DNA of 64,000 nucleotides from IMG/VR virus record IMGVR_UViG_3300042554_002914; one strand, given 5' to 3'. Under the pieces are notes generated by a model. That model was not told the origin of the DNA and ran no database searches. It saw only the letters and a list, made by a program, of their open reading frames with translations. This document shows, one piece after another, positions 36,762 to 41,530 of this stretch. A program made the position numbers and the translations under genes. Positions within the stretch are counted from its first letter, which is position 1. Every line of letters begins with the position of its first letter. The stretch comes from a virus (taxonomy: Duplodnaviria; Heunggongvirae; Uroviricota; Caudoviricetes).

Positions 36762-39700
36762 TCAGGACAAGATGTTGGTGATCATAGCGCCAGAACCGAT
36801 AAGACCAGATGCACCGAGGCCAACCAAGTTAACCACACGTTCGATGGTGATTTCAGCACGCACGACACGGCGTTCGCGAATGTAGTACTCCAATTTGTTA
36901 TCGTAAAGGCTCTTTATCCTCTACATCTTTGTATTTCTACAAAGTTCAGACTATATCTTTGCCTTACATCCTTATGTAAGACATTAGGCGCTCGTGGAGT
37001 TTTCATCTGTTCTAGATTACTAACTCTAGTCGTTGAACGTTCGTTTTCTCCCGAAAACGCTTCGCTGCTGATTGCCATGGTTTGAAGTTCAAACGTTAGG
37101 GTCCCAGCAATTCACCTAATTTCTTTTTATGTCAGACCCCAGTAGTTAAGGACGGACAGCGGGTGTTCCTGTGAGTTGATCATTTTTGTTAGCGTAAAGG
37201 TTATTTATCCTTCACTTCTTTACATTTCTGCAAAGATCAGACTATATCTTCTTCCTGAAATTTCTTATCAATCCGGTAACATGACTATCAGGTAGATTTA
37301 AGTGTCGTGCGAACTTGCGAATTGCTGGTTTACCCAGCTCTACCCAAAGTTCAAACAATTCATCAAACCTAGACCATAACTCTTTTCTCGATCTGGGGTT
37401 ATTTATTCCCCTTACCTTTAGAGACAAGGTTTTCGAGATTTTCAGTTTATGCTCTTCAGTCATTTTTCTACCAGTCCAGGGATGATTTGACTTATCCTTG
37501 AAATGATTTTTATGCCAGTCACTGTTTTTTCTTTTAGCTTCTTCTGAGCTTCCTAATTTGGGGGAAATTAAACTAATCTCCCTTGAACCTAGCCCCCATT
37601 GTTTTGAACTTTTCCAAATTGCCCACCATAATTTTTTATTATGGGGTTGGGATAAACTTAAAAGTAAATGGGCTATGTAGTGTTCTCTCCGGGTCAGCAT
37701 TACTAGGTTTGATACTTCATCATTCCCTCCACAACAAATAGGAATAATGTGATGTTTTTCAAGCCCATTTTTGCTTCCCCTTCGTTTGGGGATTGGCCGA
37801 AGTAAAAGTAAACGTGATGTGATAAGATTCCAATACCACTTTTCCCATTTATTAAGAAAGTGACATTCTATCAGGAGTGGGGCACTCGTGGATGGGTTAT
37901 TATTTTCGGTATTCACCATCTAGTCGTTGAACCTTTTGACTACAACTCTATTATAGCATAGAGTCCGAAATAGTCAACTTGGCTGCTGATTACCATAGCT
38001 TTCAAACTTTCGTTTGAAGCCGTAGGCTTCCCAGCAATTCACCCCATTGATCTGCGGATCAGGCAGATAATTTGACGTTACCGTCAAACCACGCATTCAA
38101 CTCGTTTAAAAGAAACGATGTTATTAACATACGTGTAACTGAAGGCCGGAGTCGCAGCATTAGCACCACCCGCAGGCATGATCGAATCAGAAGGGCCGTT
38201 GGGGCTGTAGAACAGGAGGATGCCATTGGCGGGGAAGACAGGCTGCAAGGAGCCGTCGTTGGCCAAATAACGCCCTTCAGCTACGCGCAGGCCACGCTCA
38301 AGACCGAAGTAGCGAGCGATGACATCTGTGTCGATGCTATTGGCGGAGGTGTACTTGATACGATCAAGGATCGCTTCGTTGGTCAGCAAGAGGTCGAAAA
38401 CCGAAGTTCCAAGAACAGCGGAGTTCGGACGAATGCCGATCTGGTTGGCAACAGCACGCTTCAGGGTCAGGATGTCCTCAATGGGATTAGAGGTTGCACC
38501 AGACCATGCGGCAGGGCCAGTGGCTGTGCCATAAGCGGTGTTGAAGGCGGTCCAGGTTGTAAAACCAAGACCAGTTTGTGAGCCAGGAGTCCCATTGTAG
38601 GGCTCGTATGGATTGTAGCTGCCAGTCACTGAAACAGCTTGAGCAACGGTGTACTCGTAGCTGTTCATTCATTATGTTATCGCGAGGGCTCTTTATCCCT
38701 TGCTTCTGCATGTTTCTATGCAGTTCAGACTATATCATCGTTTTGTAAACAAAACGTCAGGCGCTCGTGTCAGCTTCATTACTGTTCTAGTAGTATGCTG
38801 TTAGTCGTTGAACGTTCCGTCAATCCCTTGACGGCTTCGCTGCTGATTACCATAGCATCAAACTTTCGTTTGAAACCGTAGGTTTCCCAGCAATTCACCC
38901 AATTTTCTAAATGAGATTAATCTCATAGGGCCAATGTGTTTAGCCTAGACATCGCGTTGCGAGTCTCGATGGCGCGTAGCATTTGTTAACTCAGCGGCTC
39001 TTTATCCACTGATTCATTACCTTGTCGTTGGTAATGTTCAGACTATATTATTGCCCCACTATGTACACGATTACTGTACTTTGTAAGACATTGGGCGCTC
39101 GTGTCAGCTTCATTACTGTTCTAGTAGTATGCTGTTAGTCGTTGAACGTTCCGTCAATCCCTTGACGGCTTCGCTGCTGATTGCCCACGCGGGGGTTCCA
39201 GCAATTCACCCAATTTATAGTGGACCTACGCTGCGATCGAAATCGTTCGTAAAAAATAATCCACTTGTGCAGGACCTTCTCCTGCGTTTTCGATTCAATA
39301 ATGTTATCGCAAAGATTTTATTCTATGCTTCTTTACATTTCTGTAAAGTTCAGACTATATCTTCACCCCTGTTTTTCTTTCTTAGCTTAGCCATATGCTC
39401 ACGGGCAATCTGCCTATGGGTTTCAGACTTTTCTTTATCCGCCCAGTACTTTTTGGCGGACTCACTTCTCTTTTCCTTTTCCTCTTCAGTTTGAACCCTT
39501 CCTCTATTAGCTTCGTGAGCTTTTTTAAGTGTTTTTTCGGGCAGGGATTTACCCATCTTGGTTTTACTAAGTCTTTCTCGCATTTGCTTGGACTTAGGTC
39601 TTCCTTTCTCGGCTGCCCCCGGGGCAATACCGAATGAGGTCTTTTGTAGGGAAGTAGCTAAAATAGATGTACGTGGTCGGTAGGTAATGGCGCCTTCTCC

Positions 39701-41530
39701 GCATTTAACTCCCAACATCCTTCTAACTGCATACCAGTGTTTTACTGAGTTAGCACCTTTCGCAAGGAGGACATGGGCTATGAAGTGTTCTCGGATTGTT
39801 AGTTTTACTCTGTTTCCTTTGGAGTTATCCCCACCGTCACACTTAGGTATGATGTGATGGACGTGGTATCCCCTTTCCTTGGAGATTCCTCTATACTTCC
39901 TGGAGGAGCAGAGTTCGTGGTACCATTTTAACCATTTGTTAGGGTGCTGGGCGCTCGTGGATGGGTTATTATTTTCGGTATTCACCATCTAGTCGTTGAA
40001 CCTTTTGACTACAACTCTATTATAGCATAGAGTCCGAAATAGTCAACTTGGCTGCTGATTGCCTTGTGTTTCAGAGAAGTCACTCCTGAAACCGTCAGGG
40101 TTCCCAGCAATTCACCCAGTTTTTCTATCAGTTTTTCAACTGACGGAGGCTATCGATCTAACCTCTTCAGGCAATTCCCAAGCCACTACTTCTTGTTCAA
40201 GAGCGTAGGGCTCAGAGTCGTAACGGCTCTGTACATACGGAATGTTAGTCCCGTAAGCACGGCGGAAGTCGTTAATAGCAAATTGTTCCTTCAATTATGT
40301 TATCGCAGGGGCTCTTTATCCCCCACTTCTCTTTGTTTCCAAAGAGTTCAGACTATATCATCGTTTTGTAAACAAAACGTCAGGCGCTCGTGGAGTTTTC
40401 ATCTGTTCTAGATTACTAACTCTAGTCGTTGAACGTTCCGTCAATCCCTTGACGGCTTCGCTGCTGATTACCATAGCATCAAACTTTCGTTTGAAGCCGT
40501 AGGCTTCCCAGCAATTCACCCAATTTTTCATAACCCCTCACGGAGTTAAGCGGCATATGGAATACCGAAGCGCAGGATACGTCCTGCACGAGTTGGCGTG
40601 TCTACCACCGGTGCTATGAATAATATACAAAACTTAACGTTTTGCTCTGCATGTTTCCATGCAGTTTAGACTATATCATCATCTTTGCCTAAGCAAAGAG
40701 TCGGGCGCTCGTGGAAAGATTATTCTTGGGTCAGTCACTTTCTAGTCGTTGAACCTTCTTACTTCACTCTTATTATAGCAACAAGAGACCCGAAGTAAAC
40801 TTGGCTGCTGATTGCCTCTTTTGCGTAGCAAAAGTAAGGTGTCCCAGCAGTTCACCCGATTATTCGACAGGGGTCACCCCCTGAAGGAACCTCATTGATT
40901 CGCAATGTTGGTAGACGGTAGCATGAAACCTTGCGCGAGGGTGGTGAGACATTTGTTAACGTAGAGGCTCTTTATTCCCTACCTCTCTTTGTTTCCAAAG
41001 AGTTCAGACTATATCATCGTTTTGTAAACAAAACGCCCGGCGCTCGTGGAGTTTTCATCTGTTCTAGATTACTAACTCTAGTCGTTGAACCTTCCTTTTC
41101 TCCCGAAAAGGCTTGGCTGCTGATTACCATAGCTTTCAAACTTTCGTTTGAAGCCGTAGGCTTCCCAGCAATTCACCGGATTTTCTTTGTTAAAAACAAA
41201 GCCACTCCTTTAAATGGGCAATATGTTATCGCAAAGGCTCTTTATCCCTTGCTTCTACATGTTTCCATGTAGGCCAGACTATATCATCATCCTATAACTC
41301 CCATGCTGAGGAGTCAAGGAGCTGGGCGCTCGTGGAGTTTTCATCTGTTCTAGATTACTAACTCTAGTCGTTGAACGTTCCGTCAATCCCTTGACGGCTT
41401 CGCTGCTGATTGCCTCTTTTGCATAGCAAAAGTAAGGTGTCCCAGCAATTCACCCAGTTTTCTGCCATCATTAAAATGACAGGGACCCTAATTAATCCAC
41501 ACCTGCGTAGGTCTGTTGTAGATTCATCAT
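36762..41530 (-). CDS. Major capsid protein, 351 aa, in 10 exons: 41530-41495, 41218-41214, 40949-40898, 40620-40564, 40291-40161, 39295-39259, 38979-38942, 38669-38131, 37180-37149, 36890-36762
   Basis: Exon lengths 36+5+52+57+131+37+38+539+32+129 = 1056 nt = 351 codons plus stop, with no internal stops: MMNLQQTYAGVDPILTTLAQGFMLPSTNIANFIAPVVDTPTRAGRILRFGKEQFAINDFRRAYGTNIPYVQSRYDSEPYALEQEVVAWELPEEVIENAGEGPAQVDLRAIETRNAMSRLMNSYEY...AFSYTYQLTGTPAVRPEYYIRERRVVRAEITIERVVNLVGLGASGLIGSGAMITNILS. VDPILT..A.G, FGKE.F and W....SNPIEDI...K....IGIRPN match capsid proteins of this type. The gene lies downstream of the portal, protease and decoration genes. Confidence 0.9.
36891..37148 (-). mobile_element. 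Group I intron 9 (258 nt)
   Basis: Core elements; P1 UCCU with GGGG; P10 UACU with AGUA; terminal G. Confidence 0.9.
37242..37919 (-). CDS. Intron-encoded HNH homing endonuclease with NUMOD3-like motif
   Basis: EKHHIIPICCGGNDEVSNLVMLTRREHYIAH; HPWTGRKMTEEHKLKISK; stop TAG lies within GAUAUAG. Confidence 0.88.
   Translation of the reverse strand: MVNTENNNPSTSAPLLIECHFLNKWEKWYWNLITSRLLLLRPIPKRRGSKNGLEKHHIIPICCGGNDEVSNLVMLTRREHYIAHLLLSLSQPHNKKLWWAIWKSSKQWGLGSREISLISPKLGSSEEAKRKNSDWHKNHFKDKSNHPWTGRKMTEEHKLKISKTLSLKVRGINNPRSRKELWSRFDELFELWVELGKPAIRKFARHLNLPDSHVTGLIRNFRKKI
37950..37977 (-). promoter_or_regulatory. Sigma70-type promoter inside intron 8 for the HNH gene
   Basis: TTGACT-N16-TATAAT with extended -10 (TGC TATAAT), 30 nt upstream of ATG 37919. 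Confidence 0.7.
38670..38941 (-). mobile_element. Group I intron 7 (272 nt)
   Basis: P1 GGCU with GGCC; P10 CAUU with AAUG; terminal G; splits a Leu codon CT|A. Confidence 0.9.
38980..39258 (-). mobile_element. Group I intron 6 (279 nt)
   Basis: P1 GUGGAU with GUCCAC; P10 GCGUAG with CUACGC; terminal G. Confidence 0.9.
39350..39988 (-). CDS. Intron-encoded HNH homing endonuclease with NUMOD3-like repeats
   Basis: HVHHIIPKCDGGDNSKGNRVKLTIREHFIAH; basic repeats (KSKQMRERLSK, GRVQTEEEKEKRSES); stop lies within the GAUAUAGUCUGA core element. Confidence 0.88.
   Translation of the reverse strand: MVNTENNNPSTSAQHPNKWLKWYHELCSSRKYRGISKERGYHVHHIIPKCDGGDNSKGNRVKLTIREHFIAHVLLAKGANSVKHWYAVRRMLGVKCGEGAITYRPRTSILATSLQKTSFGIAPGAAEKGRPKSKQMRERLSKTKMGKSLPEKTLKKAHEANRGRVQTEEEKEKRSESAKKYWADKEKSETHRQIAREHMAKLRKKNRGEDIV
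40019..40046 (-). promoter_or_regulatory. Sigma70-type promoter inside intron 5 for the HNH gene
   Basis: Identical TTGACT-N16-TATAAT, 30 nt upstream of ATG 39988. Confidence 0.7.
40292..40563 (-). mobile_element. Group I intron 4 (272 nt)
   Basis: Core elements; P1 CGGU with GCCG; UUCC can pair with 3' exon GGAA; terminal G. Confidence 0.9.
40621..40897 (-). mobile_element. Group I intron 3 (277 nt), terminal nucleotide A
   Basis: Core elements present; P1 GAAU with GUUC; P10 AUGAG with exon UUCAU. Confidence 0.85.
40950..41213 (-). mobile_element. Group I intron 2 (264 nt)
   Basis: Same core elements; P1 CCAU with GUGG; terminal G; splits an Ile codon AT|T. Confidence 0.88.
41219..41494 (-). 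mobile_element. Group I intron 1 of capsid gene (276 nt)
   Basis: Core elements GAAUUGCUGGGA, AAUCAGCAGC, GUUCAACGACUAG, GAUAUAGUCU; P1 exon GGAU with GUCC (U.G at the splice site); terminal G. Confidence 0.9.

Follow-up and report, generated by a model that had tools for sequence, protein, structure and literature searches.

We found that the five bases CCCAU at positions 41214-41218 (minus strand) are very probably a genuine 5-nt exon, located between two group I introns of a single family, each mobile on its own, in the major capsid gene of a phage. The gene lies in a stretch of viral DNA of 64,000 nt (the window), and the minus strand at 41230-41201 reads ...GATAACATATTG, CCCAT, TTAAAGGAGTGGC.... 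An earlier note on this DNA had proposed the micro-exon between introns 1 and 2, and the reading frame, the homologues and the recurrence in other contigs agree with that proposal.

The host virus is a giant freshwater (lake) cyanophage with a genome of roughly 280 kb. Nine group I introns interrupt its single major capsid gene in the window, leaving ten exons on the minus strand. The joined exons comprise 1056 nt and encode 351 aa with one terminal stop only; the protein reads MMNLQQTYAGVDPILTT..., and its N-terminus, VDPILT included, exactly matched uninterrupted homologues. In profile searches exon 8 matched Pfam PF03864 (phage major capsid protein E, 3.6e-09) and phrog_1005 (6e-24), and the uninterrupted close homologue P0002 showed 66.7% identity with the capsid protein of Synechococcus phage S-CBWM1. 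The profile match together with full-length similarity to capsids of isolated phages places the protein in PF03864.

Exon 1 (41495..41530, minus strand, 36 nt, MMNLQQTYAGVD) matched residues 1-12 of P0002 with 100% identity in tblastn, and its 3′ end is GGAU, the P1 substrate of intron 1. A ribosome-binding-like motif, GGAAA, was seen upstream of it. Intron 1 (41219..41494, minus strand, 276 nt, no ORF) begins with an in-frame TAA, and its internal guide GUCC is located at 41483..41486. Exon 2, CCCAU, is followed by intron 2 (40950..41213, minus strand, 264 nt, no ORF), of which the first base is T41213, bases 2-4 are an in-frame TAA (ATT TAA), and the internal guide GUGG is at 41202..41205. 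Exon 3 (40898..40949, minus strand, 52 nt), delimited by tblastn and exon concatenation, supplies the third base of Ile14 and then LTTLAQGFMLPSTNIAN. The rest of the gene (36762..40897, minus strand) comprises exons 4-10 and seven further group I introns; for exons 5 and 6 the U/G rule gave better boundaries (40291-40161 and 39295-39259), one base different from tblastn.

Both introns matched the full Rfam model RF00028 (positions 1-253 of 253), at 41255-41518 with 85.9 bits and at 40985-41223 with 97.4 bits, the gathering score being 50 bits. The ends of such matches are unreliable for P1 and the 3′ tail, and the intron 2 match begins within intron 1; therefore the intron boundaries were set by homology and the U/G rules. 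Each intron ends in the terminal G of group I introns (G41219 and G40950). The two share 74.5% identity with an identical core block of about 50 nt, and judged by sequence both are group I ribozymes, predicted to be self-splicing.

The coding role of the five bases is carried by the frame and the homologues. With P0002 (351 aa) as query, tblastn put residues 1-12 on 41530-41495 and the next aligned stretch, residues 15-31, on 40946-40898, and the gap between exons 1 and 3 is exactly Pro13 plus two bases of Ile14, the very bases that the earlier note had assigned to CCCAU within VDPILT. Since exon 1 is made up of whole codons and exon 3 carries a single base ahead of its first full codon, the intervening piece must be 2 mod 3 in length; when intron 1 must also end in G and the exon in U, CCCAT is the sole fit. 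Pro-Ile, whose absence from homologues would have counted against the exon, is kept in all of the 40 homologues inspected, out of 120, which carry [GS]VDPILTTLAQG at the capsid N-terminus. Joining exon 1 directly to exon 3 yields a 48-aa product, as expected from the claim that skipping the exon shifts the frame. Frame and homologues thus argue for the inclusion of CCCAU in the mature RNA of the two-intron allele.

All four allele states were found among related phage contigs: intron 1 alone at the same site in 13 contigs, intron 2 alone at the same site in six, both introns with CCCAT between them in seven (at least 6 samples, several haplotypes, intron identity 92-97%), and neither intron in 29. 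The two insertion sites are thus independent of each other. Both flanking introns are complete and each is able to exist alone, and forms bearing a homing endonuclease were found at both insertion sites. The same CCCAT was seen unchanged in six other contigs, among them the divergent L037, whose exon 8 is about 85% identical and whose introns are 78-81% identical to those of the window. The micro-exon is also present in G001, a complete 279,339-bp genome with terminal repeats, in which the interrupted capsid gene is the only one. With recurrence in six other assemblies, and with each intron occurring alone at the same site elsewhere, the junction is not due to chance. The wobble bases inside each P1 likewise track the presence of the corresponding intron: the Pro codon is CCC in 13/13 alleles with intron 2 vs 1/42 without it, and the Val codon is GTG in 20/20 alleles with intron 1 vs 3/35 without it.

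Several contigs differ from relatives by the precise absence of introns. L001 and L004 are 100% identical in all 12 exons as well as in 2.7 kb of upstream and 1.2 kb of downstream sequence, while L001 is without all 11 introns of L004, including intron 2 (93.5% identical to that of the window), and keeps exons of 8, 9 and 10 nt. Introns are similarly gone from L079-L081, otherwise 100% identical to L025, and from L082, 100% identical to L016 in all but one exon piece (97.5%); in L079-L082 and L087 intron 1 is precisely missing at GTGGAT/CCAATC. Intron 2 is the intron most often kept in this group, as in L088 and L089, which are of the L004 type with all other introns gone, and intron 1 is kept in L018. 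These intron-free contigs look RNA-derived, with each junction seemingly used exactly as predicted; formally, they could also stem from a DNA variant from which every intron has been lost. The spliced two-intron allele (GGTGTGGATCCCATTCTCACCACC) and the partly spliced form that keeps intron 2 but not intron 1 (GTGGATCCCATTTAAAGGAGTGG) had no match in viral_contigs, and CCCATTCTCACCACCCTCGC matched L001 solely; in metagenome_contigs the last query gave three matches, all to unrelated GC-rich contigs and attributed to chance. No DNA carrying the GTGGAT-CCCATT signature turned up in the protein clusters to which the spliced capsid protein is close.

In both introns the 5′ exon ends in U paired with a guide G (GGAU/GUCC and CCAU/GUGG). 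The pairing of GUGG with CCAU (C41217-U41214) was found as the earlier note had described it, with a U.G wobble at the splice site, and the five bases do serve both introns, intron 1 as its 3′ exon and intron 2 as its P1 substrate. A consensus of 12 intron 1 and intron 2 sequences by RNAalifold predicted P1 unaided, with the splice-site U.G pair in 12/12 aligned introns and two P1 pairs being GC in intron 1 and CG in intron 2. Compensatory change was seen in 27/57 predicted pairs of these 12 introns, the core helices being kept in this way among relatives; the sequences are related and some modules exchanged, so the count is supportive and not a strict test. P1 alone is worth about -2.2 kcal/mol with only 4 bp, and a 4-bp match by itself is statistically unremarkable. 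When the junction region was folded locally by minimum free energy, P1 did not appear and CCCAU was paired with the downstream P3 sequence, a result that we discounted because short P1 helices depend on tertiary contacts. For P10, GG at 41488-41487, just 5′ of the guide, can pair with C41218-C41217 in intron 1 (2 bp only), and GGA just 5′ of the guide of intron 2 can pair with UCU of exon 3. Only one base, C41217, is common to the intron 1 P10 and the intron 2 P1.

We propose that two mobile group I introns of one family came to occupy two homing sites five bases apart in the sole capsid gene. The intron 1 guide GUCC would pair with GGAU at the end of exon 1, and the intron 2 guide GUGG with CCAU within the micro-exon. 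Downstream, intron 1 would need only its own terminal G and the 2-bp P10; upstream, intron 2 would need only four bases. These needs are so small that five bases can hold the recognition elements of both introns, C41217 being common to the two, and since the guides are mutually incompatible (GG vs CC), neither intron should take the 5′ splice site of the other. Capsid protein would be made only if both introns splice independently and the exon stays, giving GAU-CCCAU-UCUC.

As the two catalytic cores could hardly hold the same bases simultaneously, the two reactions would be sequential. Competition between the ribozymes for CCCAU is plausible because one base is common to the intron 1 P10 and the intron 2 P1. 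The elements fit into five bases and are unchanged in one-intron alleles, therefore either order is chemically possible; the order would be kinetic, not obligatory, and we lean slightly to intron 1 being usually spliced first. An obligatory order, in which the ribozymes compete for CCCAU and one finishes before the other starts, would be a kinetic checkpoint on capsid expression. The double duty of C41217, the L037 guide (ambiguous there), where GUGGG could pair with all five exon bases, the mere five bases between the terminal G of intron 1 and the splice-site U.G of intron 2, and the frequent retention of intron 2 in RNA-like contigs all speak for it. We nevertheless consider it rather unlikely, since the intron 1 P10 has 2 bp and is equally weak in alleles with intron 1 only, the same elements serve each intron when alone, and intron 1 can also be the one that is kept, as in L018. 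P10 is, as is well established, not strictly needed for exon ligation, which weakens the case for an obligatory order further. For the 1-nt exon of placozoan mitochondrial cox1, moreover, both splicing intermediates were observed (PMC5436844). A stronger version, improbable in our judgement, holds that five bases are near the physical minimum for an exon that two group I ribozymes recognise, each solely through its own pairing, and that the pair is a coupled unit with obligatory order: the intron 2 P1 hairpin would form on the micro-exon once transcribed, would delay or position the 3′ splice site of intron 1 and so fix the maturation order, with exon skipping as a tunable loss. Such a unit would amount to a naturally occurring timer, built from two ribozymes, in a late gene of a phage.

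Kinetically ordered, independent splicing also has to be weighed against readings in which the five bases are not productively used. If the two-intron allele were a dead end or a heavy mis-splicer, much of its transcript would go to the frameshifted 48-aa product, through a hybrid ribozyme or because intron 1 reacts at the 3′ splice site that belongs to intron 2. Some exon skipping may occur: it is on record for engineered tandem introns and for Twort orf142 with its 23-nt exon (PMC10136302), the core blocks of the two introns are identical over about 50 nt, and for the P10 guide of intron 1 the UCU of exon 3 (3 bp, one of them a wobble) is about as good a partner as exon 2 (2 bp). We regard a dead end or heavy mis-splicing as very improbable, however, since the arrangement is found in the sole capsid gene of the complete genome and across the seven contigs, their several haplotypes and the divergent lineage; in addition, the guides are differentiated, a hybrid P3 would hold a G.G mismatch (alignment columns 45-51 and 184-190), and differentiated cores and guides favour inclusion (Ueda et al., PMC10136302). 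A pseudogene reading of the two-intron capsid gene was rejected. That CCCAT is itself intron sequence, within a twintron or one composite intron, is hardly credible: two adjacent cores can resemble one, and the boundaries given by Rfam itself overlap the five bases, but the frame and the invariant Pro-Ile demand exactly CCCAT, alleles with a single intron have it at its own site and with unchanged boundaries, and contigs without one intron read GTCGAT-CCCAT-TCTC and GTGGAT-CCAATC. A twintron would have one intron inserted into the other and no coding sequence separating the two, whereas these five bases are coding. The least probable reading, to which we give almost no weight, is an assembly artefact from repeated intron sequences; the introns are 70-97% alike and contigs often break here (e.g. 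L075, L005), yet six independent assemblies, and also a long contig with terminal repeats, show an identical junction, and the reading frame is exactly restored.

The closest parallels are mitochondrial. In placozoan cox1 an exon of 1 nt separates two group IB introns (Osigus et al. 2017, PMC5436844), and mini-exons of under about 4 codons are known from mitochondrial genes (MFannot paper, PMC10352661). As in the phage gene, two complete independent group I introns surround an exon whose shortness hides it from gene callers; with this exon both a conserved codon and the reading frame are regained, and it arose by a second intron inserting beside an existing one. Unlike the phage allele, which is known from DNA, those cases are organellar, with host or maturase factors available and RNA-seq proof; the phage exon in turn belongs to a late structural gene in a bacterial host, its introns are close paralogues, and the whole P1 substrate of intron 2 lies inside it.

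Among phages and bacteria, orf142 of Staphylococcus phage Twort has three group I introns with the 23-nt exon between introns 2 and 3 (PMC10136302), its skipping having been observed by Landthaler and Shub (1999), as relayed in PMC10136302, and the 23S rRNA of Coxiella burnetii has a 34-nt exon. These share with our case the setting in a phage or bacterium, similar group I introns in tandem, a short exon and the question of inclusion vs skipping; in contrast, the present exon has 5 nt vs 23-34 nt, there are nine introns, the guides are clearly differentiated and splicing is predicted. Engineered tandem Tetrahymena introns around a 24-nt exon showed skipping, either by use of a distal 5′ splice site or through formation of a hybrid ribozyme (Ueda et al. 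2023, PMC10136302). They supply the mechanistic frame for inclusion vs skipping of the phage exon, although that construct is artificial with identical introns and the phage pair is naturally differentiated (GUCC vs GUGG, compensatory P3 differences). Capsid genes of giant viruses are comparable in that group I introns and homing endonucleases accumulate in them and some exons are very short, as in Faustovirus E12, with 13 exons, the shortest of 13 bp (PMC6247863), and in Mimivirus L425, a capsid gene with multiple introns; they differ in that these viruses are eukaryotic, the intron types are mixed and the shortest reported exon is 13 bp.

In the literature we found no report of a phage or bacterial exon below 23 nt, the shortest named being those of Twort (23 nt) and Coxiella (34 nt). 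CCCAU is thus, as far as we found, the shortest exon reported in a phage gene, shorter ones being known in mitochondria, and the gene to which it belongs is essential, in a lineage of lake cyanophages that is abundant. The natural allele set (intron 1 only, intron 2 only, both, neither) is suited to measuring the coordination of neighbouring ribozymes, and it offers natural material on the avoidance of exon skipping, studied so far mainly in engineered constructs. Gene callers and protein-guided aligners overlook such exons, and therefore in viral metagenomes the capsid marker gene seems to be broken or to contain a frameshift. For introns of this group I family, four or five upstream exon bases and two downstream can suffice, so that many of them can pack into one gene; 11 were mapped exactly in L004, and L002 showed 14 Rfam matches.

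The source virus record (103 kb) carried all of its group I matches in a single gene, the major capsid protein gene of the Phage_cap_E family (41530-36762, minus strand), of which exon 8 matched PF03864 and phrog_1005. The nearest isolate was Synechococcus phage S-CBWM1, whose uninterrupted capsid protein shared 66.7% identity with P0002, itself uninterrupted and closely homologous to the capsid protein of the window. With the 351-aa P0002 as tblastn query, we found ten collinear pieces in the window, and Rfam placed eight full-length group I introns between them; a ninth intron containing a large ORF scored below the Rfam gathering score and so was missed. The ten exons joined made 1056 nt, encoding 351 residues with one terminal stop. 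Protein-guided boundaries of exons 5 and 6 were one base off (40160-40161 and 39294-39295), and the rule that exons end in U and introns in G set these exons at 40291-40161 and 39295-39259 (GAAGAGGT/TAGATCG ... TTATTG/AATCGAAAA; slashes mark splice sites).

Between intron 1 (41494-41219) and intron 2 (41213-40950), both on the minus strand, the local sequence was ...GTGGAT/TAATTAGGGTCC...ACATATTG/CCCAT/TTAAAGGAGTGGC...AACAAATG/TCTCACC.... Exon 1 (41530-41495, minus strand) ends in frame after Val-Asp, one leading base is needed for Leu-Thr-Thr in exon 3 (40949-40898, minus strand), and the motif [GS]VDPILTTLAQG was present in all of the first 40 homologues printed; therefore exactly five bases, a Pro codon plus AU, are required. 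Given an intron ending in G and an exon ending in U, positions 41218-41214 were the sole fit. An earlier note had described CCCAU as an exon at this place, and the frame, the homologues and the U/G ends agreed with its coordinates and description. A true 5-nt exon is thus strongly supported, and we hold it with high confidence. The note's warning that skipping would shift the capsid frame was also borne out, the predicted product without exon 2 being a frameshifted protein of 48 aa.

Introns 1 and 2 share one 5' layout, an 8-nt loop followed by the guide at intron positions 9-12. The guide of intron 1, GUCC, pairs with GGAU in the helix with the 5' exon (P1), and that of intron 2, GUGG, pairs with CCAU as had been claimed; the pairing with the 3' exon (P10) is 2 bp in intron 1 (CC with GG) and 3 bp in intron 2 (UCU with GGA). 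From twelve aligned intron 1 and intron 2 sequences, RNAalifold predicted P1 unaided, with the U.G pair in 12/12 sequences, two P1 pairs that were GC in intron 1 and CG in intron 2, and compensatory change at 27 of 57 pairs. Both introns have an in-frame TAA at the 5' splice site or immediately downstream of it (GAT/TAA, 41492-41494; CCC AT/T TAA, 41210-41212), which would keep ribosomes out of the ribozyme until it is spliced.

With exon 8 as query against viral contigs, we obtained 70 related loci; the junction pattern added five stretches, four on contigs already among the loci and one new. Every contig covering codons 11-15 was assigned to an allele class. Both introns with CCCAT between them were found in seven contigs (the window and loci L002, L003, L033, L047, L075 and L037), intron 1 only in 13 (3' exon beginning CCAATC, CCAATT or CCTATC), intron 2 only in six (GTCGAT CCCAT, then the intron), and neither in 29 genomic contigs. 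The boundaries in one-intron alleles were those in the window, and forms bearing homing endonucleases occurred at both sites: intron 2 of L011 (896-1612), L006 (384-1100) and also L017 encodes a 238-aa homing endonuclease (phrog_655, NUMOD3 motif), and intron 1 of L048 (4868-5607) has endonuclease remnants, apparently from a copy that is split or has decayed. Since each intron occurs alone at its own site and endonuclease forms exist at both, there are two separate homing sites, and the micro-exon is the remainder when both are filled. The target sites of the two endonucleases must overlap. Pro13 was CCC in 13/13 alleles with intron 2 vs 1/42 without it, and Val11 was GTG in 20/20 alleles with intron 1 vs 3/35 without it; that synonymous P1 bases follow intron presence is consistent but not independent support, as the alleles are related and co-conversion during homing would produce this pattern too. 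In an alignment of introns 1 and 2 from the window, L002, L033, L047, L037, L025, L014 and L004, hairpin modules (for example P6 and the stem after P7) were swapped between introns of different sites; the P6 hairpin of the window's intron 1, for instance, was found in intron 2 of L002, which points to probable gene conversion among paralogous introns within the capsid gene.

The two-intron allele occurs in a complete genome. The record of L002 (279,339 bp, direct terminal repeats, rated 100% complete) carries the micro-exon, and its only capsid matches are pieces of the interrupted gene. The two-intron contigs are not clones, intron 1 being 92-97% identical among them and intron 2 likewise. 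In the L037 lineage exon 8 is ~85% and the introns 78-81% identical to the window's; the junction reads ...CATAAGTG/CCCAT/TTGCATGG..., and each of the two introns is a full group I match (95.8 and 70.3 bits). In L037 the P1 loop of intron 2 is enlarged by an insertion of ~50 nt, and there are two guide candidates: GUGGG, able to pair with the whole micro-exon, or a GUGG that is the homologue of the window's guide.

Several contigs contained the same gene with its introns removed. L001 (IMG sample 3300012770) has no introns and is 100.0% identical to the intron-bearing L004 over 2671 nt upstream, all exons and 1213 nt downstream; the exact spliced map gave 12 exons (9, 32, 52, 57, 10, 32, 81, 8, 22, 15, 38 and 700 nt) and 11 introns, with GTCGAT-CCCAT/TCTCACC at the site 2 junction. 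The same protein was found on intron-free contigs of samples 3300012777 and 3300012772 and of Logan run SRR5839259. L079-L081, from three SRA runs, lack the introns and are 100% identical to L025, and the intron-free L082 is 100% identical to L016 except for one exon piece (97.5%); in all four, site 1 reads GTGGAT/CCAATC. L084-L087 are also intron-free, their flanks and exons being 100% identical to intron-bearing genomic loci. Altogether these contigs (L001, L084-L087 and L079-L082) came from JGI samples 3300012770, 3300012772 and 3300012777 and four or five SRA runs; we take the JGI 33000127xx series to be lake metatranscriptomes. Partly processed forms also occurred: L088 and L089 are of the L004 type with all introns removed but intron 2, L089 also keeping the end of intron 0, and L018, 100% identical to L025, has lost three downstream introns and retains intron 0, intron 1 and the next one.

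Unspliced, partly and fully spliced forms with identical exons are the pattern that would be expected of RNA, and the intron-free contigs look like spliced capsid mRNA, which would be direct in vivo evidence of splicing in this intron family. Read in this way, they would show the predicted use of both junctions where the intron stands alone, and the correct inclusion of 8-10 nt exons flanked by two such introns. The introns nearest the 5' end of the gene seem to be spliced out last or with the lowest efficiency, and intron 2 apparently tends to linger; chimeric assembly of spliced and unspliced reads is a possible alternative for L088, L089 and L018. Junction searches of viral and metagenome contigs found no processed contig of the two-intron allele.

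The earlier note had proposed that the two ribozymes compete for CCCAU and that splicing is probably ordered, which is plausible. The recognition sets of both introns fit in the five bases and overlap by one base, C41217. The terminal G of intron 1 lies five bases from the splice-site pair of intron 2, and the two cores would probably not be docked simultaneously; in that case the reactions would be sequential. Both orders are chemically possible, because in either intermediate the remaining intron finds the elements that it uses in its one-intron allele. Splicing of intron 1 first is modestly favoured, as transcription of intron 1 is complete by the time the exon emerges, and in L088 and L089 the retained intron is the orthologue of intron 2; however, slow removal of intron 1 also occurs, as L018 shows. 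Skipping of exon 2 is possible, since introns 1 and 2 have 74.5% identity and share a core block of ~50 identical nt, and for the P10 guide of intron 1, UCU of exon 3 is about as good a partner as CC of exon 2. With tandem group I introns, skipping occurs via a hybrid ribozyme or through use of a distal 5' splice site by the downstream intron, and differentiated cores and guides favour exon inclusion (Ueda et al., PMC10136302). The natural pair has this differentiation: the guides are mutually incompatible (GUCC does not pair with CCAU, nor GUGG with GGAU), P3 differs by compensatory changes (alignment columns 45-51 and 184-190), and a hybrid of the intron 1 5' half and the intron 2 3' half would carry a G.G mismatch in P3.

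A very short exon between group I introns is an already known kind of feature. Mini-exons under about four codons "occur regularly" in mitochondria (PMC10352661), a 1-nt exon separates two group IB introns in placozoan cox1, with RNA-seq support and both intermediates seen (PMC5436844), and the shortest capsid exon of Faustovirus has 13 bp (PMC6247863). The shortest phage and bacterial exons named in the literature surveyed were 23 nt in Twort orf142 and 34 nt in Coxiella 23S rRNA (PMC10136302); as far as that literature goes, CCCAU is the shortest such exon found in a phage, in an unusually intron-dense gene. The two-intron capsid allele is mainly of value as a natural test system for the coordination of neighbouring ribozymes.

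Relatives are more intron-rich than the window, with 11 introns in L004 (2661-6699, exact mapping) and 14 Rfam matches in L002 (2041-7879). They have an extra intron 0 after codon 3, which the window lacks, and their shortest exons are 8 nt (GAAGAGGT), 9 nt (ATGATGAAT, the start codon exon) and 10 nt (AAGGAACAGT). Intron 3 of the window (40621-40897) ends in A instead of G (TATATTA/TTCATAGC), as does its L004 orthologue, and L001 has precisely that junction joined (GCGAAT/TTCATAGC); thus splicing apparently does take place at this A-terminal 3' splice site.
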